Shown here piece by piece: positions 1-26,102 of a stretch of 26,102 nt of DNA. The notes under the pieces were generated by a model. That model was not told the DNA's origin. It saw only the letters and a program-made list of their open reading frames with translations, and searched no databases. The translations under genes were made by a program, and so were the position numbers. The stretch's first letter is position 1, and every line of letters starts with the position of its first letter. The DNA is from a virus. Its lineage: Duplodnaviria > Heunggongvirae > Uroviricota > Caudoviricetes. Location: IMG/VR virus record IMGVR_UViG_2529292998_000006; one strand, given 5' to 3'.

Positions 1-1131
1 TCAAATGACCAGTTTTTTCCACTCCTTACCGCGTACATCGTTGTAAATATCGGTCATTTTTTGATTCGAATGGCCTAGCAAAATTTTGGTATCAACCCCC
101 TGCTCTCTGAACAATCGCTCTGATAAAGATCTCTGCTCATGGAAAGAGGGTGGGGTGCCATTAGCACGCCAGTTGTAATCCACAGAATCCCGGGCTTTTT
201 TAAATGCAACGGTTAATGTTGCTGGCTTAACCATCCCGCCGCGCTTAGCTGTCCCTTTCGCGTGATGGTGGTGCAATAGCCACGGACTAAGAACGCAATC
301 GCGGCAGGATGACACCACATCATCTAGGGTGAGATTTAATTTATCGCAACGCAGAGCCAGAGGGATGGCAATCCGGGTTCCTGTTTTTTGCTGTTCGACA
401 TGAAGATAACCATCCCGGATATCCGAAAATTGCATTTTGCAAATATCTGAAAGGCGCTGGCCTGTCATCAGTGCCAGCAGCATACCGCGCTGTAAAAAGT
501 AACCATCCTTTTCCGCTGCGTTATAAATCATCATCCACTCATCAAAAGTCAGTCGCTGTCTTGATATCCGCACCTGCGGTTTTTTTGCCGATTCTGCAGG
601 GTTAAAGCCTGGCGGGACATCGCCCGTTTGCTGAGCTTCCCGGAAAACATCGATCAGTACTTTCCTGAAAATTTGTCCCATTCTGTTATGTCCTCTGGCC
701 TTGTACTCTTCCAGTACTGATACCACATCTTTTACGGTTATGGCATCTAACGGTCTGGTGCCAAAACGTTCATCAAATACCCTGAGAGGGGCCGCTTTCT
801 GTTTCAGCGTGTTGAGTTTGATCTCGCCGTTTTCATATCTTTCCTGTTGAATTTTTCTGTAATTATTCAGAAAAATGGTAACGGTTGATGAACCGCCGGT
901 ATCACTAATAATTTTCTCCTGCAGACTGAGCATTTGTTCCATTTGCTGCCGGGCAAGACGGCTGTTCGCTTCTGCTGCAATAGTTTCTGCCAGTTTCTGG
1001 TCAATACTGCCGAGACCGTGATTTTTGCCTGTTATGGGATGCCTGTAACGCCAGTAAACTTTGTTATTTCTTTTGTCAAAATACGGAGATAATCCCGGAA
1101 CATCGGTTTTATATTTTCGCGGGCGCGCCAT
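1..1131 (-). CDS. int: Tyrosine recombinase, lambda-family prophage integrase (376 aa)
   Basis: ATG-started 376-aa ORF. C-terminal half carries an H-x-x-R motif (FHEQRSL) and LLGHS...TDIYND with a candidate catalytic Tyr. Sits at the prophage end and overlaps a small excisionase-like gene by 23 nt. Confidence 0.88.
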   Translation of the reverse strand: MARPRKYKTDVPGLSPYFDKRNNKVYWRYRHPITGKNHGLGSIDQKLAETIAAEANSRLARQQMEQMLSLQEKIISDTGGSSTVTIFLNNYRKIQQERYENGEIKLNTLKQKAAPLRVFDERFGTRPLDAITVKDVVSVLEEYKARGHNRMGQIFRKVLIDVFREAQQTGDVPPGFNPAESAKKPQVRISRQRLTFDEWMMIYNAAEKDGYFLQRGMLLALMTGQRLSDICKMQFSDIRDGYLHVEQQKTGTRIAIPLALRCDKLNLTLDDVVSSCRDCVLSPWLLHHHHAKGTAKRGGMVKPATLTVAFKKARDSVDYNWRANGTPPSFHEQRSLSERLFREQGVDTKILLGHSNQKMTDIYNDVRGKEWKKLVI

Positions 1132-4540: not shown

Positions 4541-4598
4541 AAAAAGGGCGGCAGAGCAGTCACGGAGTAAAACTGATACCGCCAAAAGTCACCAGAAA
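4541..4598 (-). ncRNA. dicF: DicF small regulatory RNA with intrinsic terminator
   Basis: Minus-strand sequence UUUCUGGUGACUUUUGGCGGUAUCAGUUUUACUCCGUGACUGCUCUGCCGCCCUUUUU matches recalled DicF. It ends in a GGCGG...CCGCC hairpin followed by a U-run. Confidence 0.85.
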
Positions 4599-7633: not shown

Positions 7634-7704
7634 CTCGCAATATTCATACCGGATCACTTCCGGCAATTTGTGAGTAAAAAGATTCGGTATCAGAAGAGGT
7701 GAGT

Positions 7705-8745
7705 ATGGCTAACGCCTGGCTCAGATTATGGCATGACATGCCAAATGACCCTAAGTGGCGAACAATTGCCAGGGTGTCAGGGCAGCCAATTGCAACAGTG
7801 ATGGCAGTGTATATCCACCTTCTGGTGAGCGCGTCACGAAATGTCACGACATGTCACGGCGTGTCACTACGTGGTCACATTGATGTCACGACGGAAGATT
7901 TAGCAAGTGCGCTTGATGTGACGGAAGAAGTAATTGATTCAATTTTACAGGCAATGCAGGGGCGGGTACTTGATGGAGATTTAATCACCGGATGGGAAAA
8001 ACGCCAGGTACTGAAAGAGGACAATGGCAACGTTTCACAAACCGCGAAATCCCCGGCAGAGCGCAAGAGAGCGCAGCGCGAGAGGGAAAAATTACGAAAA
8101 CAGAATGAGGGGTGTCACGACGAGTCACGCATATGTCACGACATGTCACGACGAGTCACGACAGATAAAGATACAGATAAAGAATTAAACCCCACACATA
8201 ACGCGCACGTGCGCGAGAGTGCTCCGACCAGTGAGTCGAGTGGTACGCCGTTGCAGGCAGCAGAACCTGCATCCCTGGATGGACTGAGCGAACCCATCGG
8301 GAAATTTCCGATGGTCGATGACTGGCATCCGTCGCCGGATTTTCGACGACGGGCTGCGTTGTGGGGGATGGCTTTGCCGGAGCCGGAATTTACACCTGCT
8401 GAACTTGCCGCTTTCCGGGACTACTGGGCAGCGGAGGGGAAAGTTTTCACGCAGGTTCAGTGGGAGCAGAAATTCGCCCGTCACGTAAATCACGTCAGGG
8501 CGCAGGTTAAGCCAGTCAGCAAGGGGGTAAACCATGCAGCAGCACCAGGTGGCACCGCATCACGGGCAGTTCAGGAAATTCGGGCAGCACGTGAGCAGTG
8601 GGAACGTGAAAACGGATTTATCAGCGACGGAAACGGTCTGGAAGCTGTGGGAACTCATGGGGGAGGTTTATTCGAACCGCTGGACCCAGAAGAACGGGGC
8701 CGCACCTTCGAAGCTCTGGATTGCACAGATTGGCGCGATGACTGA
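7705..8745 (+). CDS. Replication initiator, YdaU (DUF1376)-like N-terminus with DnaT-like C-terminus (346 aa)
   Basis: ATG at 7705 with GAGGTGAG upstream. The track ORF starts at GTG 7699. N-terminus WLRLWHDMPNDPKWRTIARVSGQP. Contains two internal clusters of phased direct repeats. Confidence 0.7.
   Translation: MANAWLRLWHDMPNDPKWRTIARVSGQPIATVMAVYIHLLVSASRNVTTCHGVSLRGHIDVTTEDLASALDVTEEVIDSILQAMQGRVLDGDLITGWEKRQVLKEDNGNVSQTAKSPAERKRAQREREKLRKQNEGCHDESRICHDMSRRVTTDKDTDKELNPTHNAHVRESAPTSESSGTPLQAAEPASLDGLSEPIGKFPMVDDWHPSPDFRRRAALWGMALPEPEFTPAELAAFRDYWAAEGKVFTQVQWEQKFARHVNHVRAQVKPVSKGVNHAAAPGGTASRAVQEIRAAREQWERENGFISDGNGLEAVGTHGGGLFEPLDPEERGRTFEALDCTDWRDD
7831..7892. repeat. Iteron-like cluster 1: six GTCAC(G) repeats at about 10-bp spacing
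   Basis: GTCACG or close variants at 7833, 7843, 7853, 7863, 7874 and 7885. An inverted copy follows at about 7915. Confidence 0.6.
8112..8190. repeat. Iteron-like cluster 2: five GTCACG repeats at 10-bp spacing, then an AT-rich tandem CAGATAAAG x2
   Basis: GTCACG at 8114, 8124, 8135, 8145 and 8155. AT-rich stretch 8161-8190 could serve as an unwinding element. Confidence 0.6.
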
Positions 8746-9199
8746 GCAGCAAATCCGACAGGTCTGCCGCCAGTGCATGGACCGCTGCCGGGCGGGTGAA
8801 ACATGGCCTCCGGACCTGGCTGAGTTTGTGGCGCTGATTTCAGAAAGCGGGGCCAATCCATTTGGCCTGACGGTGGATGCTGTGATGGAGGAGTACCGCC
8901 GCTGGCGTGATGAGTCCTGGCGATATGACGGAAGCGACAAATATCCGTGGCCTCAGCCTGTGCTGTACCACATCTGCCTCGAAATGCGTACCAGAGGGAT
9001 TGAGCGCCAGATGACGCAGGGTGAGTTAAAACGACTTGCGGAACGGCAACTGACGAAATGGGCAAAGCATGTTGGTAACGGGATGAGTGTTCCGCCAGTG
9101 CGACGACAACTGGAAGGGGCGAAACACCCGCAAGGGCCAACGCCAATTGAACGGCTGAAACAGGAATACGAACGCCGGAAGGCAGCTGGTTTTATTTGA
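8657..9199 (+). CDS. Replication protein P-like helicase loader; start uncertain (8534, 8657 or 8738)
   Basis: Segment LWIAQIGAMTEQQIRQVCRQ...PPDLAEFVAL...KYPWPQPVLYHICLEM...MTQGELKRLAERQL is colinear with recalled lambda P. It overlaps the 3' end of the initiator gene. An ATG at 8534 has a good SD (AAGGGGG) but would give a 212-nt overlap. Confidence 0.6.
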   Translation: MGEVYSNRWTQKNGAAPSKLWIAQIGAMTEQQIRQVCRQCMDRCRAGETWPPDLAEFVALISESGANPFGLTVDAVMEEYRRWRDESWRYDGSDKYPWPQPVLYHICLEMRTRGIERQMTQGELKRLAERQLTKWAKHVGNGMSVPPVRRQLEGAKHPQGPTPIERLKQEYERRKAAGFI

Positions 9200-9232
9200 A
9201 TCTGAGAAACGATTTTGTCGGAGGAAATTTTA

Positions 9233-10003
9233 ATGGAAACCGTATTTGACGCACTGAAAGCAATGGGAAAAGCCACATCGGTAGAACTGGCCGCGCGACT
9301 TGATATCAGTCGTGAAGAGGTTCTCAACGAGCTGTGGGAACTCAAAAGAAATGGCGTCGTTGATAAAACTGGTCACACCTGGTTTCTGGCTGGCGAAGGT
9401 GAATCCCGGGTAACCGAAGAGCGGCCAGTAAAATCTGAAGCACAGGATATGCTGACCGGGGAGGTCGAACAAAAAGTTACCGCAGACATGATGATTGAGT
9501 TTATCGGTCAGGATGGTGCTAAAACGTGTGAGGAACTGGCGGGTAAGTTCGGCGTCAGTACTCGCAAGGTTGCCTCCACGCTGGCGGTGGTAACCGCAAC
9601 GGGGCGGCTGGCACGCGTTAATCAGAACGATAAATTTCGTTACTGCATGCCGGGCGATAATTTACCAGCAGAGCCGAAAGCCGCGCTGGTAACGGAAAGT
9701 GATGGTAAGGCCTTTCCTCAGCCAGCAGGTGCTGCGTTACCAGTCCGGGAAGCCGCAACACAGGAAGAAATTAAAACAGAAACTGTGGCGGACATTGTGC
9801 AGCCGTTGCCATCGTTTACCGAAACGCAAGCAGATGAGCTGATTTTTCCGTCCCTTCGCAGGGCAAACCTGGCGCTGCGCAGGGCGAAAAGTGATGTTCA
9901 GAAGTGGGAGCGAGTCTGCGCCGCGCTGCGGGAGCTGAACAAGCACCGGGATATTGTTCGACAGATTACTGATTCTTCCCGCCGTGTTGTATCGGAAAAG
10001 TGA
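9233..10003 (+). CDS. Hypothetical protein with two winged-helix-like segments (256 aa)
   Basis: ATG at 9233 with GGAGG upstream. The track ORF starts at TTG 9215. HTH-like [27 protein letters not shown] and a second [19 protein letters not shown]. Confidence 0.55.
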
Positions 10004-10018
10004 TTGCCGGAGGCGCTT

Positions 10019-10444
10019 ATGGCAAAAGTATTTACACAAGAAGAGCGGGAAAAAATTAAAGGGCAGGTTGTTGAACTTGTACGTCTGAGCGGTCGCGAGA
10101 CGTTGCGGCAACTGGAAGCCAAGACAGGTGCGACAAGATATCTGATGAGTGTTCTCGCCAGAGAGCTGGTTGCCAGTGGCGATGTATACAACTCTGGTTA
10201 CGGGTTATTCCCGTCTGAACAGGCGCGTAAGGACTGGCAAAATGCTCGCAAAAAACTCTCAAGGGCAAAGGTGAAGAAACCTGCAGTGGTTGATCCGGAC
10301 CTTATCTGGTCGTTACCAGACGGCGAAATACGCCGCTACGACAGGCGCCTGAATATAATCTGTCGCGAGTGCCGGAAGAGCGAAGCTATGCAGCGTGTAC
10401 TGGCATTTTATCAAGGAAATGTTAGGTATTTTAGACGTTACTAG
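10019..10444 (+). CDS. Hypothetical protein (141 aa)
   Basis: ATG at 10019 with GGAGG 5 nt upstream, immediately after the previous stop. The track ORF starts at TTG 10004. Basic C-terminal half. Confidence 0.5.
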   Translation: MAKVFTQEEREKIKGQVVELVRLSGRETLRQLEAKTGATRYLMSVLARELVASGDVYNSGYGLFPSEQARKDWQNARKKLSRAKVKKPAVVDPDLIWSLPDGEIRRYDRRLNIICRECRKSEAMQRVLAFYQGNVRYFRRY

Positions 10445-10597
10445 ATTAAAGAGCATTAGTTCAGATGTGAATTGACATTTTCATGGCGCAGGGTAGAGCC
10501 AGCGTGGTTGTCCGCTTTGCGTCAAAACCAGATATTACCAGATTTAGACATATATTCCCGATAGCCCTGCTCTGATGCTACACTCTGTGCTATTTTC

Positions 10598-11284
10598 ATG
10601 ACCCCAATAAAAATATTTATGACTATTGCTGATTTCAAACGGCCTAAATTGGAGCTCCCAAACGGGGCAAACAAACTACTACTGCACTCTTGCTGTGCTC
10701 CATGTTCCGGTGAAGTGATGGAGGCGCTTCAGGCCTCGGGAATCGACTACACCATCTTTTTCTACAACCCGAACATTCATCCTCAGAAAGAGTATTTAAT
10801 TCGTAAGGATGAAAATATTCGCTTTGCTGAACAACACGGCGTGCCGTTTATCGATGCTGATTACGACACCGACAACTGGTTTGAACGTGCCAAAGGAATG
10901 GAATGGGAGCCTGAGAGGGGGATCCGTTGTACCATGTGTTTTGACATGCGTTTTGAGCGGACAGCGTTGTACGCTGCTGAAAATGGTTTCAGTGTGATCA
11001 GCAGTTCACTGGGCATTTCACGCTGGAAAAATATGCAGCAGGTTAACGAGTGTGGGCGGCGAGCTGTTGCGCATTATCCGGGTATGGTGTACTGGGATTA
11101 TAACTGGCGCAAGCAGGGCGGCTCGTCCCGTATGATTGAAATCAGCAAGCGCGAAAAATTCTATCAGCAGGAATATTGTGGCTGTGTGTATTCTCTGCGC
11201 GATACCAATCTACACCGCAAATCTCAGGGACGCCCTCTTATCAAAATTGGCCAACTCCACTACGGAAAAGAAGAGAAGGAGTGA
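10598..11284 (+). CDS. QueH-like (DUF208) putative epoxyqueuosine reductase (228 aa)
   Basis: Motifs [24 protein letters not shown] and [11 protein letters not shown] match what I recall as conserved QueH signatures. Stand-alone gene between the replication module and hokD. Confidence 0.65.
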
Positions 11285-11521
11285 TTTTATGGATCACCTT
11301 TCTGATTGATTTCATATTGGCGAGGTGACGTGAGTTAAGTAGAATGGCTGCGGGTGCTTGAGGCTATCTGTCTCAGGCATGAACACTGAAAGGCAGATAG
11401 AGAAAAGCCCCAGTTAACATTTCGCGTCCTGCAAGACGCTTAACATTAATCTGAGGCCCAATCTATGTCTCACAAATGTAGGTTAGCCTCTTACGTGCCG
11501 AAAGGCAAGGGGAAGCAGGCT

Positions 11522-11677
11522 ATGAAGCAGCAAAAGGCGATGTTAATCGCCCTGATCGTCATCTGTTTAACCGTCATAGTGACGGCACTGGTAACGAGGA
11601 AAGACCTCTGCGAGGTACGAATCCGAACCGGCCAGACGGAGGTCGCTGTCTTCACAGCTTACGAACCTGAGGAGTAA
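11522..11677 (+). CDS. hokD: Hok-family membrane toxin HokD/RelF (51 aa)
   Basis: MKQQKAMLIALIVICLTVIVTALVTRKDLCEVRIRTGQTEVAVFTAYEPEE. The track ORF from 11465 extends it in frame, which I take to be an artefact. Confidence 0.85.
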   Translation: MKQQKAMLIALIVICLTVIVTALVTRKDLCEVRIRTGQTEVAVFTAYEPEE

Positions 11678-11745
11678 GAGACCCGGCGGGGGAGAAATCC
11701 CTCGCCACCTCTGATGTGGCAGGCATCCTCAACGCACCCGCACTT

Positions 11746-11776
11746 AACCCGCTTCGGCGGGTTTTTGTTTTTATTT
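11746..11776 (+). terminator. Intrinsic terminator after hokD
   Basis: Hairpin AACCCGC-TTCG-GCGGGTT followed by TTTTGTTTTTATTTT. Confidence 0.7.
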
Positions 11777-11893
11777 TCAACGCGTTTGAAGTTCTGGACG
11801 GTGCCGGAATAGAATCAAAAATACTTAAGTAGCGCGCAGGGATAAGAGGGATGGTCCCTTAAAGGGGAGAGCTAATTATCCGGAAGGATTCTG

Positions 11894-12145
11894 ATGATGA
11901 ACATCGAAGAACTGCGTAAAATTTTTTGTGAAGATGGCCTCTATGCTGTGTGCGTTGAAAATGGAAATCTTGTTAGTCATTACCGCATTATGTGTTTGCG
12001 AAAGAATGGGGCTGCGTTAATTAATTTTGTGGATGCTCGGGTCACGGACGGATTTATCTTGCGCGAAGGTGAGTTTGTCACTTCATTACAGGCATTGAAA
12101 GAGATCGGAATAAAAGCTGGCTTTTCTGCTTTTTCAGGAGAATAA
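11894..12145 (+). CDS. rem: Rem-like protein (83 aa)
   Basis: 83-aa ORF with GGAAGGA upstream, between hokD and ydfU as in K-12 Qin. Named by size and synteny from memory. Confidence 0.55.
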   Translation: MMNIEELRKIFCEDGLYAVCVENGNLVSHYRIMCLRKNGAALINFVDARVTDGFILREGEFVTSLQALKEIGIKAGFSAFSGE

Positions 12146-14941: not shown

Positions 14942-15241
14942 AAAAATTCCTTAATACTGATAACTTGGCGCACTATACACACGTTCCTGAAGAAAGCTAT
15001 AGTTTTTTGATGGGGTTGAAGATGGCTGGATGTCTAAAATAAACATTGCTTCATATGTTCAACTATGCGTTAATGATTGCGTCGGTTTGAAGAACAGACG
15101 ATATACGAAGTAGTTTACTAAAGCAGTTCTCATTTCAGGTGTTATTCACTTATTCCTTCTTTGAGTCTCTCCAATTAAGTACGAAGTCGTTTCTGTTATG
15201 CAAACCATTTATGCCGAAAGGCTCAAGTTAAGGAATGTAGA

Positions 15242-15457
15242 ATGTCAAATAAAATGACTGGTTTAGTAAAATGGTTTAACGCTGATAAAGGTTTCGGCTT
15301 TATTTCTCCTGTTGATGGTAGTAAAGATGTGTTTGTGCATTTTTCTGCGATTCAGAATGATAATTATCGAACCTTATTTGAAGGTCAAAAGGTTACCTTC
15401 TCTATAGAGAGTGGTGCTAAAGGTCCTGCAGCAGCAAATGTCATCATTACTGATTAA
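15242..15457 (+). CDS. cspB: Cold-shock protein CspB (71 aa)
   Basis: [71 protein letters not shown]. Divergent from cspF with a long 5' leader. Confidence 0.9.
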
Positions 15458-15739
15458 AATTCATCGCTCGTCTGTATACGATAACGAAGAAGGCTGATGC
15501 CTGAGTAGAGATACGGACAGAGTAGTGAATATTGGATCTCTTTAATAAAAAGTAAGGAGGTCCAATACATGAAACAATGGCTAGCATATTTGGCAAAATC
15601 TTAATCAGGAAAAGTATGCTAACCATTGTGGTGAAGTGCAGGTTTGCTGCATGAATAGTTTTACAGCAGAAGCTAACTGCTGGCATGGCAAAACAAAGTG
15701 CGTAAGTGGATGACTCCCACAAAAAGCACCACAATCTCA

Positions 15740-16738: not shown

Positions 16739-16742
<4 letters not shown>
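16431..16742 (+). CDS. ydfR: YdfR-like protein (103 aa)
   Basis: 103-aa ORF between holin and lysozyme. Its stop overlaps the lysozyme ATG (ATGA). Confidence 0.7.
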
Positions 16743-17766
<1,024 letters not shown>

Positions 17767-18128
17767 GGTAATATTAAATCGGAACATTTACATCGCGGAA
17801 TGTAAAATTTAAATAAAAAGGACTCTTCCATGAGCCAAAATTCCTGAAATCTTAAGGGTAAGATAAAAGGTCTTAATCAGAATGACACGTTTTATTAATA
17901 AATAAAGCTATTCTTTCATTGCTGTGTTTTTCTTTACAAAAGTAATCCTTGCTATGGGTGGTTAATCATGCGTTAATGGTGTTCTGGTTTGTTACAAATT
18001 TATCTGAAGCAGTCATTGTTATAATTTTATTATTTGTACCTCTTGAGATTTCCTTGTTGGTTTTTCTCTCTGATATTTTTTTTCGGACCATTCTGCCCAA
18101 GGGCTAATTTCTTCAAAAGGTAATAATT

Positions 18129-18341
18129 ATGTCTAACAAAATGACTGGTTTAGTGAAATGGTTTAACCCTGAAAAAGGTTTTGGTTTCATCACGCCGAAA
18201 GATGGCAGCAAAGATGTGTTTGTCCATTTCTCAGCAATTCAGAGCAACGATTTCAAAACATTAACTGAGAATCAGGAAGTTGAATTTGGTATTGAGAACG
18301 GACCTAAAGGTCCTGCCGCTGTTCATGTAGTGGCGCTTTGA
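18129..18341 (+). CDS. cspI: Cold-shock protein CspI (70 aa)
   Basis: [70 protein letters not shown], with a long AT-rich 5' leader. Confidence 0.9.
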
Positions 18342-18544
18342 GGTAGACAATATTACAAACCATATTCACTTTAGATGCCCGTGTTGTCATGGTTCCCAGT
18401 ATAGAACATCATCTTTTGATGTTTCTGACATGAATCCTTTCGGGGCAAAATGTATCTTTTGTAAATCAATGATGATTACATTTGATAATATTTCACAATA
18501 CTTAAATGCCAGCCGTCTGTCGTTGGATTTAAAAAAGTGAAAAT

Positions 18545-20430: not shown

Positions 20431-20687
20431 TGGAAGTCAACAAAAAGCAGCTGGCTGACATTTTCGGTGCGAGTATCCGTACCATTCAGAACTGGCAGGA
20501 ACAGGGAATGCCCGTTCTGCGAGGCGGTGGCAAGGGTAATGAGGTGCTTTATGATTCTGCCGCCGTCATAAAATGGTATGCCGAAAGGGATGCTGAAATT
20601 GAGAACGAAAAGCTGCGCCAGGAAGTTGAAGAACTGCGGCAGGCCAGCGAGACAGATCTCCAGCCACCCGCGCTACGGCATGGGTAA
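20430..20687 (+). pseudogene. nohA: Truncated terminase small subunit Nu1 (nohA-like; lambda-like for about 78 aa, then out of homology)
   Basis: MEVNKKQLADIFGASIRTIQNWQEQGMPVLRGGGKGNEVLYDSAAVIKWYAERDAEIENEKLRQEVEELRQASE matches recalled lambda Nu1. Diverges after DLQP at about 20665, with a stop at 20687. Confidence 0.8.
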
Positions 20688-21945
20688 ACGTCTTGGTGCG
20701 GCAGATGTGGATAAATGGGCGCTGTATGTCATCGGCCAGTGTTGCGACCAGTCGGTGCCGGACGGTTTTGGCGGCACGGAGCCGCGCATCACCTGTAATG
20801 CCTGGCTGACCACGCAGCGTAAGGCGTGGGATGTGCTCAGTGATTTCTGCTCGGCGATGCGCTGTATGCCGGTATGGAACGGGCAGACGCTGACGTTCGT
20901 GCAGGACCGACCATCAGATAAGGTGTGGACCTATAACCGCAGTAATGTGGTGATGCCGGATGATGGCGCGCCGTTCCGCTACAGCTTCAGCGCCCTGAAG
21001 GACCGCCATAATGCCGTTGAGGTGAACTGGATTGACCCGGATAACGGCTGGGAGACGGCGACAGAGCTTGTGGAGGACACGCAGGCCATTGCCCGTTACG
21101 GTCGTAACGTCACGAAGATGGATGCCTTTGGCTGTACCAGGCGGGGGCAGGCGCACCGAGCCGGGCTGTGGCTGATTAAAACGGAACTGCTGGAAACGCA
21201 GACCGTGGACTTCAGCGTGGGTGCCGAAGGGCTTCGCCATGTACCAGGTGATGTCATTGAAATCTGTGATGATGACTATGCGGGGATCAGCATCGGCGGG
21301 CGCGTGCTGGCGGTGAACAGCCAGACGCGGACACTGACGCTCGACCGTGAAATCACGCTGCCATCCTCCGGCACCACGCTGATAAGCCTGGTTGACGGAC
21401 AGGGGAATCCGGTCAGCGTGGAGGTCCAGTCCGTCACCGACGGCGTGAAGGTGAAAGTGAGCCGGGTTCCTGACGGCGTTGCAGAATACAGCGTGTGGGG
21501 GCTGAAGCTGCCGACGCTGCGCCAGCGCCTGTTCCGCTGCGTGAGTATCCGTGAGAACGATGACGGTACGTATGCCATCACTGCCGTGCAGCATGTGCCG
21601 GAGAAAGAAGCCATCGTGGATAACGGGGCGCACTTTGACGGTGACCAGAGCGGCACGGTGAATGGTGTCACGCCGCCAGCAGTTCAGCACCTGACCGCAG
21701 AAGTCACCGCAGACAGCGGGGAATACCAGGTGCTGGCGCGCTGGGACACGCCGAAGGTGGTGAAGGGGGTGAGCTTTATGCTTCGCCTGACCGTGGCAGC
21801 GGACGACGGCAGTGAGCGGTTGGTCAGCACGGCCCGGACGACGGAAACCACATATCGCTTCACGCAGCTGGCGCTGGGAAATTACAGGCTGACAGTCCGG
21901 GCGGTAAATGCATGGGGACAGCAGGTGCACATACCCATTCGATGA
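20668..21945 (+). pseudogene. Internal fragment of tail tip/host-specificity protein J, fused to the Nu1 remnant
   Basis: GMGKRLGAADVDKWALYVIGQ...[12 protein letters not shown] is colinear with the middle of lambda J as I recall it. No start of its own. The frame ends 6 codons past the homology. Confidence 0.8.
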
Positions 21946-22220
21946 CATTTGTTTCAGGTGGTTCCAGTGGTGCTCCGGGAAGTGGATCACCTGATTATTC
22001 TAAATACAGTGTTAACACTTCTTCTGCAGGCGCTCATACGCACTCTGTATCGGGTACTGCTGCAAGCGCAGGTGCACACGCACATACTGTCGGTATTGGT
22101 GCTCATACGCACTCCGTTGCGATTGGTTCACATGGACATACCATCACCGTTAACGCTGCTGGTAACGCGGAAAACACCGTCAAAAACATCGCATTTAACT
22201 ATATTGTGAGGCTTGCGTAA
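21912..22220 (+). pseudogene. stfQ: C-terminal remnant of side tail fibre protein (Stf)
   Basis: Repeated GAHTHS motifs and the ending [11 protein letters not shown] typical of the lambda Stf C-terminus. Different frame from the J fragment. Confidence 0.7.
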
Positions 22221-22795
22221 TGGCATTCAGAATGAGTGAACAACCACGGACCATAAAAATTTATAATCTGCTGGCCGGAACTAATGAATTTATTGGTGAA
22301 GGTGACGCATATATTCCGCCTCATACAGGTCTGCCAGCAAACAGTACCGATATTGCACCGCCAGATATTCCGGCAGGCTTCGTGGCTGTTTTCAACAGTG
22401 ATGAGGCATCGTGGCATCTCGTTGAAGATCATCGGGGTAAAACGGTTTATGACGTGGCTTCCGGCGACGCGTTATTTATTTCTGAACTCGGTCCGTTACC
22501 GGAAAATGTTACCTGGTTATCGCCGGGAGGGGAATATCAGAAGTGGAACGGCACAGCCTGGGTGAAGGATACGGAAGCAGAAAAACTGTTCCGGATCCGG
22601 GAGGCGGAAGAAACAAAAAACAGCCTGATGCAGATAGCCAGTGAGCATATAGCGCCGCTTCAGGATGCTGTGGATCTGGAGATCGCAACGGAGGAAGAAA
22701 CCTTGTTGCTGGAAGCCTGGAAAAAGTATCGGGTGTTGCTGAACCGTGTTGATACATCAACTGCACCGGATATTGAATGGCCAGCACTGCCGTAG
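22220..22795 (+). CDS. tfaQ: Tail fibre assembly protein (191 aa)
   Basis: ATG overlaps the stf stop (TAATG). 191-aa Tfa-like protein located next to a Pin invertase. Confidence 0.85.
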
Positions 22796-22892: not shown

Positions 22893-23483
22893 TTATATGT
22901 CAGGTGTCTGAAGTTTTGCTTTGGCTCTTAAAATGGTTTGCCGCGAGGTTTTGAATTCCCGGGCAATGGCACTTATACTTACACCTGACTTAATTCGTTC
23001 GAATACCACCTGTTTCTGTTCTTCATTTAACACAGGTGGTCGACCAAAACGTTTCCCTGCGCCGCGGGCTCTTACTATCCCGGAATGAGTGCGTTCAAGT
23101 AAAAGGTCTCGTTCAAATTCAGCGACTGCTGAAATTACGTGCATCATCATTTTTCCTGTTGGACTGGTCAGGTCAATGCCCCGCAATGCTAAGCAATGCA
23201 CTCTGATACCTGTTTCGGTCAGTTGTTCCACTGTTTTCCTGATATCCATTGCATTACAACCAAGGCGATCCAGTTTTGTCACAATCAATTGATCACCACA
23301 TTTCAGGCGAGCAAGCAACCGGTTAAAACCAGGACGCTCACTGGTTGCTGCTGAGCCGCTAATGTGTTCTTCGATTATTTGCTGAGGTTTGATTTTAAAA
23401 CCTGCACTTTCGATTTCCCGGCGTTGATTTTCGGTGGTCTGATCCAGCGTTGATATCCGACAGTAAGCAAAAATTCGAGACAT
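22893..23483 (-). CDS. pinQ: Serine recombinase, DNA invertase Pin/Gin/Hin family (196 aa)
   Basis: N-terminal catalytic region [16 protein letters not shown] with the active-site Ser, resolvase core, C-terminal HTH ([17 protein letters not shown]). Confidence 0.9.
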
Positions 23484-24818: not shown

Positions 24819-26102
24819 ATGGATTTCCAGTTATATTCGCTCGGCGCAGCGTTAGTGTTTCATGAAATATTTTTTCCTGAATCATCAACGGCAATGGCGT
24901 TAATTCTGGCAATGGGAACCTACGGTGCAGGTTATGTGGCGCGTATTGTCGGAGCATTTATTTTCGGCAAAATGGGCGACAGAATAGGGCGTAAAAAAGT
25001 GCTCTTTATTACCATCACCATGATGGGGATCTGTACCACCTTAATTGGTGTGTTACCGACCTATGCACAGATTGGTGTTTTTGCACCCATCTTGCTGGTG
25101 ACGTTGCGTATTATTCAGGGGTTGGGTGCAGGTGCGGAAATTTCCGGTGCCGGTACGATGCTGGCGGAATATGCGCCAAAAGGTAAGCGCGGAATTATCT
25201 CCTCATTTGTGGCTATGGGAACTAACTGCGGAACCTTGAGCGCAACGGCAATCTGGGCCTTTATGTTCTTCATTCTCAGTAAAGAGGAACTGCTGGCGTG
25301 GGGATGGCGTATACCGTTCCTGGCGAGTGTTGTCGTGATGGTCTTTGCTATCTGGTTGCGTATGAATCTGAAAGAAAGCCCGGTCTTTGAGAAGGTTAAC
25401 GACAGTAACCAACCGACAGCAAAACCTGCACCTGCTGGTAGCATGTTCCAGAGCAAATCCTTCTGGCTGGCAACAGGGCTGCGTTTTGGTCAGGCGGGTA
25501 ACTCCGGGTTAATTCAGACTTTCCTTGCAGGCTATTTAGTGCAGACGTTATTGTTTAACAAAGCAATTCCAACAGATGCATTGATGATCAGTTCGATTCT
25601 CGGCTTTATGACCATTCCGTTCCTTGGTTGGTTATCCGATAAAATTGGTCGCCGGATCCCGTATATTATTATGAATACCTCCGCGATTGTGCTGGCATGG
25701 CCAATGCTTTCTATCATTGTAGATAAAAGCTATGCCCCGAGCACCATTATGGTTGCACTGATTGTGATTCATAACTGTGCGGTGCTGGGATTATTTGCTC
25801 TGGAAAACATTACCATGGCAGAAATGTTTGGCTGTAAAAACCGCTTTACCCGGATGGCTATTTCTAAAGAAATTGGTGGTCTTATCGCTTCCGGTTTTGG
25901 TCCTATCCTGGCGGGTATTTTCTGCACCATGACGGAATCCTGGTATCCGATCGCCATTATGATCATGGCATATTCAGTGATTGGTTTAATCTCTGCGCTG
26001 AAAATGCCAGAGGTGAAAGACCGTGATTTAAGTGCGCTGGAAGACGCTGCGGAAGATCAACCGCGTGTTGTAAGAGCTGCGCAACCTTCCAGAAGTCTGT
26101 AA
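24819..26102 (+). pseudogene. ydfJ: 5'-truncated MFS (MHS-family-like) transporter, ydfJ-like; host gene interrupted by the prophage
   Basis: 12 TM-like hydrophobic segments. It starts inside the conserved TM1 motif (DFQLYSLG...FFPES, lacking the preceding W/Y residues), and an in-frame TGA lies 2 codons upstream of the ATG. Confidence 0.65.

Follow-up and report, generated by a model that had tools for sequence, protein, structure and literature searches.

The virus record IMGVR_UViG_2529292998_000006 of IMG/VR (Duplodnaviria; Heunggongvirae; Uroviricota; Caudoviricetes) comprises 26,102 nucleotides, and this whole stretch of DNA is called the window below. The window holds a Qin-like lambdoid prophage that spans positions 1-24400 and carries queH, a gene of the epoxyqueuosine reductase family QueH. 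In this study, the identity, origin, distribution and possible role of this gene were analysed computationally. The queH gene lies between the replication module and the type I toxin-antitoxin locus hokD (Table 1). This order had been proposed in an earlier note made from the letters alone, and it was confirmed by the Pfam and Rfam matches on both flanks. Escherichia coli K-12 has no queH at the equivalent position of its Qin prophage; relB-relE lie directly beside hokD there, as the note had stated. Terminase, portal, head or capsid, and tail genes were sought in the window, and none was detected beyond a fragment of tail protein J and a tail-fibre assembly gene. The prophage is therefore defective, and queH is intact within it.

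Gene extent and family membership

A maximal open reading frame (ORF) of 228 amino acids (aa) was confirmed at 10598..11284 on the plus strand, exactly where the earlier note had placed it. The length given there for the protein did not stand equally well, since orthologue N-termini and the annotation of the Prokaryotic Genome Annotation Pipeline (PGAP) favour a start at Met8. The seven-codon extension before Met8 was aligned in no orthologue, and chromosomal orthologues start at the position of Met8 of the query, as in the Erwinia protein with the N-terminus MTNPAFKRAKLELPQG. The PGAP product likewise has 221 aa and begins at Met8. The -10 box described below predicts a transcription start that would lie only ~6-8 nucleotides (nt) from the ORF start at 10598. 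The real start of queH is thus probably Met8 (10619), giving a protein of 221 rather than 228 aa, as judged from these alignments. Residue numbers in the following text refer to the 228-aa translation.

The product matched the Pfam family PF02677 (QueH, formerly DUF208 or COG1636) over nearly the entire profile (positions 1-174 of 175, aa 27-201), with 221.5 bits against a cutoff of 23.5 and E=1.1e-65. The sequence of the Thermotoga maritima QueH crystal structure (PDB 7lc5) also matched the queH product (E=8e-22, residues 27-203). Conserved residues were assessed in an alignment of the query with 57 diverse representatives, taken from clusters at 50% identity, and the T. maritima sequence. 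At every column conserved in at least 95% of the sequences the query keeps the consensus residue, namely C32, C33, C36, N59, E65, Y66, R69, E106, R110, C111, C114, R118, A126 and K144. C194 and C196 are present in the query as well; each of these positions is Cys in 46/57 representatives, and the exceptions are mostly truncated sequences. The six cysteines C32, C33, C111, C114, C194 and C196 correspond to C9, C10, C87, C90, C169 and C171 of T. maritima QueH. They form an N-terminal CC pair, a central CxxC and a C-terminal CxC, and between 46 and all 57 of the representatives have Cys at these columns. Cys36 of the query aligns with Asp13 of T. maritima; because 55/57 members have Cys at this column, CCAPC is the family norm and the T. 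maritima sequence is the outlier. Entries for the C9S and D13N mutants of T. maritima QueH exist in the PDB (D13N is 9dco), and the ligand roles suggested for single residues rest on the alignment together with the existence of these entries.

An AlphaFold2 model of the queH product was obtained with a predicted local distance difference test (pLDDT) score of 71 and a predicted template modelling score (pTM) of 0.72. The fold in question is the adenine-nucleotide-alpha-hydrolase-like Rossmann core of QueH, and the predicted model matched it. The top five Foldseek matches were all T. maritima QueH entries, with target-normalised template modelling (TM) scores of 0.77-0.80, root-mean-square deviations of 3.0-3.3 Å and probability 1.0, and the next matches were TtuA/NcsA-type enzymes with TM scores of at most 0.37.

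The comparisons that the earlier note had proposed for its QueH/DUF208 assignment all came out in its favour: the profile match is full-length, all six cysteines align with T. maritima QueH, and the predicted fold is closest to that enzyme. The three motifs quoted there are genuine QueH signatures. All of them occur in the translation (HSCCAPCS at aa 30-37, FFYNPNIHP at aa 54-62 and the third at aa 189-199), and their Cys and Asn columns are conserved among the representatives. On the basis of profile, cysteines and predicted fold, which agree, the ORF encodes a genuine QueH. No NCBIfam model matched the product although PGAP names it QueH, so the name presumably comes from another type of evidence. 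The prophage protein shares with T. maritima QueH (PDB 7lc5, 7lc7, 9deu) the full-length domain, the six cysteines, the invariant residues and the fold. It differs from this reference in having ~20 extra C-terminal residues, which are conserved among Enterobacterales copies, in being encoded by prophages and phages of the lambdoid type rather than at a chromosomal housekeeping locus, and in always standing alongside QueG in its host.

Origin, distribution and maintenance of queH

The nearest non-phage relatives of the window QueH were found in Scandinavium (92%), Kluyvera (91%) and Enterobacter (88-90%), and many further relatives in Enterobacterales and other Proteobacteria had identities of 75-86%. 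None of the Scandinavium, Kluyvera and Enterobacter loci has the phage neighbours of the window. In Scandinavium, queH is accompanied by SPFH, SnoaL, SDR and metallo-beta-lactamase-fold genes, and in one Enterobacter copy by rluE, icd and a chorismate mutase gene; the Providencia and Erwinia copies lie in the core neighbourhoods tmcA/dapE/purC and purL/glrK/glnB, respectively. Four phage or prophage alleles were included in a neighbour-joining tree, which was computed from 208 ungapped columns and had no bootstrap. These alleles, 96.6-99.5% identical to one another in aa sequence, formed one clade, which was nested in the Enterobacteriaceae and sister to Scandinavium/Kluyvera (92-94% aa identity). 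Since the phage alleles form a single clade within Enterobacteriaceae QueH, the tree suggests that one lambdoid lineage captured queH once from the chromosome of an Enterobacteriaceae relative.

Similarity at the DNA level with the loci of Scandinavium, Kluyvera and Enterobacter extends from ~45-50 nt before the ATG of Met8 to a few bases past the stop codon. As it is limited to about 10570-11290, the captured cassette would measure ~720 bp. The prophage gene has the same length and start as the chromosomal genes of these three genera and the same TGcTACAnT box ~43 nt before the ATG. The Scandinavium and Enterobacter copies, unlike the window copy, have metabolic or housekeeping neighbours and no phage genes nearby.

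The upstream DNA of prophage and chromosomal copies cannot otherwise be aligned, and GCTAC (10577-10581) is its sole invariant block. It belongs to a putative extended -10 element, whose conserved form in prophage and chromosomal loci is TGcTACA(A/C)T. A box of the type TGnTAnnnT, 40-45 nt before the ATG, was present in window-type alleles (E. albertii, O104:H4), NCTC10537, Scandinavium and Kluyvera, and at the same distance in 3/4 Enterobacter copies, Symbiopectobacterium and Erwinia. The allele of sequence type (ST) 70 keeps TGCTAC and has lost the final T of the box. From this conservation we infer that the native promoter came along when queH was captured, and that transcription would start near 10591 and give a 5' untranslated region (UTR) of ~27 nt.

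In Enterobacter sp. ECC-175 (NZ_CP143776.1, 2900-6670), chromosomal queH lies just 3' of rluE and icd. The 3' end of icd in E. coli is a classic attachment site of lambdoid phages and e14. As a speculation, this Enterobacter locus could be an ancient hotspot of integration, at which a phage might plausibly have acquired queH.

The queH ORF was detected in 995/5,426 complete E. coli genomes (~18%), and in 985 of these 995 at least 80% of its length is present. Carriers have one or two copies, nearly all of them chromosomal, and the matches include ST131, O104:H4 and avian pathogenic E. coli (APEC) isolates. The cobalamin-dependent counterpart queG was present in 5,426/5,426 complete E. coli genomes, in line with the statement of the earlier note that E. 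coli normally uses QueG; as queG is universal in the genomes scanned, every queH carrier has both enzymes. The prophage at ompW of O104:H4, a Rac-like element of ST70, the Qin-like prophage of NCTC10537 and the phage HannyBb were compared with the window. In these three other E. coli prophages and in HannyBb, an isolated and apparently complete phage of 45 kb, queH occupies the same slot directly after DUF977, and the right-hand neighbours vary. Relatives were found on 191 viral contigs of IMG/VR, and the best 80 of the 191 were all 100% identical to the window protein. A contig of E. albertii carries an identical queH with the same neighbours. In this type strain (NBRC 107761, NZ_BBMY01000048.1), the products of YdaT, O, P, DUF1627, DUF977, queH and hok are 98-100% identical in aa sequence to those of the window, and the prophage region is therefore shared between Escherichia species.

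Selection on the gene was estimated from three prophage alleles by the pairwise Nei-Gojobori method. The ratio of nonsynonymous to synonymous divergence (dN/dS) was 0.05-0.06 at dS 0.27-0.45, which argues for strong, long-term purifying selection in the lambdoid gene pool. Synonymous sites were saturated in comparisons with the Erwinia and Providencia copies.

The annotation of the gene differs between resources. RefSeq uses the name 'epoxyqueuosine reductase QueH' in 40/40 records sampled across the ranking, so that the novelty implied by the earlier note was overrated: a gene named QueH is present in ~1,000 complete E. coli genomes. Neither the family nor its reaction is new, and even the name of the gene at this locus was already in use. 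No paper on prophage-borne QueH in E. coli was found in the literature searched. In HannyBb the gene is labelled 'hypothetical protein', and the profile PHROG 3217, which has 188 positions and the label 'unknown function', covers only aa 41-228. Many phage annotations start queH at Met41 (10718) and thereby lose the CCAPC motif. A GGTGA sequence resembling a Shine-Dalgarno site precedes Met41, which is probably why the shorter ORF is called. Because a start at Met41 drops CCAPC, it may be one reason why phage resources miss the family; the short calls look like an artefact of annotation by which the family is concealed in phage databases. A survey by Hutinet et al. in 2019 stated that homologues of QueA, QueG and QueH were absent from the viruses analysed (PMC6884629). 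The present identification corrects that statement for QueH, and the label of PHROG 3217 as well.

Possible role of the prophage enzyme

In E. coli, whose queuosine (Q) pathway has been described in full (PMC5372724), the step from epoxyqueuosine (oQ) to Q is cobalamin-dependent (PMC4646009, citing Frey 1988). This step is performed by QueG, to which QueH is the cobamide-independent alternative (PMC6461909; PMC5372724). The occurrence of QueG and QueH in one genome has a precedent in 755 Streptococcus strains (PMC12632869). Both enzymes catalyse the same reaction, from oQ-tRNA to Q-tRNA (PMC5372724; PMC6461909). The two come from non-orthologous families whose folds are unrelated, and QueG needs cobalamin; it is also a core gene, whereas queH is accessory.

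The prophage QueH would be an iron-sulfur enzyme that reduces oQ to Q without cobalamin, acting on position 34 of the transfer RNAs (tRNAs) tRNA-Asn, -Asp, -His and -Tyr. Its substrate would be supplied by the host, in which queG, the last gene of the Q pathway, is universal. Captured as a cassette of promoter and ORF from an Enterobacteriaceae relative, queH would now be moron cargo of Qin-like and Rac-like prophages, placed after the replication module and ahead of the hok/nin/Q region. It would provide a B12-independent backup, by which tRNA is matured to Q rather than stuck at oQ when cobalamin is scarce or its uptake is lost. E. coli does not synthesise the corrin ring de novo and depends on uptake mediated by BtuB, and this B12 receptor doubles as a receptor for phages and colicins. 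The cobalamin requirement of QueG, together with the inability of E. coli to form corrin de novo, makes a backup role the most likely one. On balance, we consider it probable that queH is self-promoted prophage cargo encoding a catalytically competent enzyme that makes Q maturation independent of cobalamin. Activity in E. coli, transcription in the lysogen from the -10 box and a benefit under B12 limitation are what we infer for this role.

Such cargo resembles the morons of lambdoid phages and the auxiliary metabolic genes of phages: it is a single foreign gene between conserved modules whose origin outside phages can be demonstrated, it has its own putative promoter, and it persists in defective prophages. 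Unlike a typical moron, it lacks a detectable flanking terminator, and its guanine-plus-cytosine content (48.2%) is near that of the surrounding prophage (46.3%, the value for the window). A further parallel is the pair MetE/MetH, in which a single step is served by both a B12-dependent and a B12-independent enzyme within one genome (PMC6461909). In contrast to pairs of this type, the independent isozyme is here phage-borne and strain-variable instead of core, and no B12 regulation is evident, with no riboswitch near queH. Neither a preQ1 nor a cobalamin riboswitch was detected in the Rfam gathering scan of the whole window or in a permissive scan of 10300-11900; near queH these scans returned only sok and a weak isrK-like match 3' of hok.

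Several observations weigh against a self-promoted backup enzyme. The literature searched contained no activity, expression or phenotype data for prophage queH. The scan for -35/-10 consensus promoters did not report the TGcTACACT site, there is no recognisable -35 element, and the case for a promoter of its own is made by conservation of the box alone. A Shine-Dalgarno sequence is absent before both candidate starts. No terminator stands between the upstream early operon and queH, so that read-through in the lytic phase is equally possible. The confidence of the structural model is moderate (pLDDT 71). The NAU fraction in the codon usage of the window is 0.54, near the E. coli average of ~0.56, and no NAU bias is seen. 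To our knowledge, a functional difference between oQ and Q in decoding has not been established.

Terminator-like sites were sought around the gene, and none was found within 10445-11464; hairpin folding of the queH flanks was not significant (z = 0.30 upstream and -1.75 downstream). As a terminator is lacking on both sides, towards the early operon and towards hok, induction is also expected to give read-through transcripts. In NCTC10537, a perfect 10-bp inverted repeat, TGTCTGCTTT...AAAGCAGACA, is located at 8908-8938 between a methyltransferase gene remnant and queH (fold z = -2.6). It is degenerate in the window (10508-10535, z = 0.3), and as it has no T-run it is not a canonical terminator.

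The lack of a terminator before queH is the starting point for a different explanation, in which queH serves lytic growth: early-right read-through after induction would raise Q/oQ for phage translation or manipulate a Q-dependent response of the host. The position of queH in the delayed-early region of the lambdoid layout fits this explanation, as does its presence in the same slot of the isolated phage HannyBb, and a 2026 preprint describes for Shewanella that queG-driven conversion of oQ to Q is induced on phage infection and affects biofilm and resistance. However, queH has retained the putative promoter element of its chromosomal ancestors and is intact in a prophage no longer able to make virions, and the window offers neither an NAU codon bias in its genes nor a tRNA gene (ARAGORN). 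We regard a lytic role as rather unlikely on this evidence; it is compatible with the backup role and not exclusive of it. The gene might also be neutral, hitch-hiking cargo, functional or half-functional, that spread with successful lambdoid prophages. Its function is redundant where QueG is universal, only 18% of genomes have it, and it has no known phenotype. Against neutrality, the low dN/dS values given above indicate long-term purifying selection on phages, nearly all carriers (985/995) hold at least 80% of the ORF, all 40 sampled RefSeq records bear the QueH name, and the gene survives in a prophage stripped of its morphogenesis genes; we thus hold neutral carriage to be improbable.

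An involvement of QueH in phage 7-deazaguanine modification of DNA, or in anti-restriction or anti-defence, in place of tRNA maturation was the least probable explanation, and we give it hardly any weight. Phages do use preQ0-derived bases in their DNA (PMC6884629), and the earlier note had raised, besides a tuning of translation that may still apply, a 7-deazaguanine-related function as a possibility. The latter suggestion was not borne out in the Pfam scan of 20 window proteins, which included every non-spurious ORF of at least 250 aa: DpdA/TGT-like proteins, QueA, and the preQ0-synthesis enzymes QueC, QueD, QueE and FolE were absent from the proteins scanned. The oQ on which QueH acts is not known from any molecule but tRNA, QueH matched no PADLOC defence model, and its identity of 92-94% to housekeeping chromosomal QueH leaves little room for a new substrate.

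Some narrower candidates were tried and rejected. Membership of a defence system received no PADLOC match for QueH or its neighbours save trivial weak helix-turn-helix matches of DUF1627. Phage tRNAs with GUN anticodons that would need Q were not found, as ARAGORN detected no tRNA in the window, and an enrichment of NAU codons in the prophage genes was not supported by the fraction reported above.

The backup role, if true, would mean that E. coli strains differ in whether their tRNA ends as Q or oQ under cobalamin limitation, and conclusions on queuosine, B12 and translation that are generalised from K-12 could then be confounded. QueG occurs in every complete E. coli genome scanned, and in ~18% of them a phage-delivered, B12-independent isozyme is present as well, a combination that seems to be unstudied. 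A stronger version, that prophage QueH is a true lysogenic-conversion factor changing the oQ/Q state of four tRNAs in ~1/5 of E. coli strains, appears doubtful to us. If it held, the enzyme would be important where B12 is scarce or where BtuB has been lost, and the changed tRNA state would affect how NAU-rich genes are translated or how a superinfection ends. QueH would then be the first phage-encoded enzyme dedicated to maturing an anticodon modification of host tRNA.

Further features of the carrier prophage

The features of the window are listed in Table 1. The position of DicF fits a dicB/dicF module of the Qin type.

Table 1. Positions of queH, its associated elements and the other annotated features of the window
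Feature	Position	Strand	Remarks
Integrase	1-1131		
Exonuclease	after integrase		
DicF antisense small RNA	4546-4597	-	75.8 bits; early-left region
Repressor/cro pair, YdaT-family gene	between DicF and replication genes		
DnaT/O-like gene	7699-8745		
Lambda-P-like gene	8534-9199		
DUF1627 gene	9215-10003		
DUF977 gene	10004..10444	+	Pfam PF06163; upstream neighbour of queH, last of the early-right/replication block, outside the cassette
Captured cassette	10570..11290	+	approximate limits; stretch homologous to chromosomal queH loci
Putative extended -10 element TGcTACACT	10576..10584	+	TG 10576-10577, hexamer 10579-10584; from conservation only
Seven in-frame codons 5' of Met8	10598..10618	+	probably 5' UTR, not coding
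queH coding sequence	10619..11284	+	probable true start Met8; 221 aa and stop; orthologue N-termini, PGAP call WP_000150294.1
hokD/mok/sok type I toxin-antitoxin locus	11352..11677	+	downstream neighbour; context only
sok RNA	11352-11527		Rfam RF01794, 120.5 bits
mok/hok ORF	11465-11677		Pfam HOK_GEF
rem, DUF968, antiterminator Q gene	in this order 3' of hokD		
Lysozyme	16739-17272		
DUF2514 spanin-like gene	17269-17766		
Tail protein J fragment	20578-21945		455 aa
Tail-fibre assembly gene	22220-22795		
Pin-like invertase	22893-23483	-	
Host major facilitator superfamily (MFS) transporter gene	24819-26102		

The isrK-like Rfam match just 3' of hokD (11686-11767) was weak, at 25.1 bits, below the gathering score, with E=0.007. 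It ends in the sole hairpin of the region that resembles an intrinsic terminator (11746-11763, followed by a T-run), and it is probably just the 3' end of the hok messenger RNA with its terminator. Two Rfam cspA-thermoregulator matches were obtained at 15081-15473 (158.8 bits) and 17983-18368 (112.8 bits). Each covers a cold-shock-protein gene (15242-15457 and 18129-18341), and the pair, which corresponds to cspB/cspF in K-12 Qin, flanks the lysis cassette. A full-length match to the Rfam IS009 RNA (22563-22761, 221.5 bits) lies wholly within the 3' part of the tail-fibre assembly ORF, on the same strand; this 'sRNA' family may be nothing more than a stretch of conserved coding sequence.

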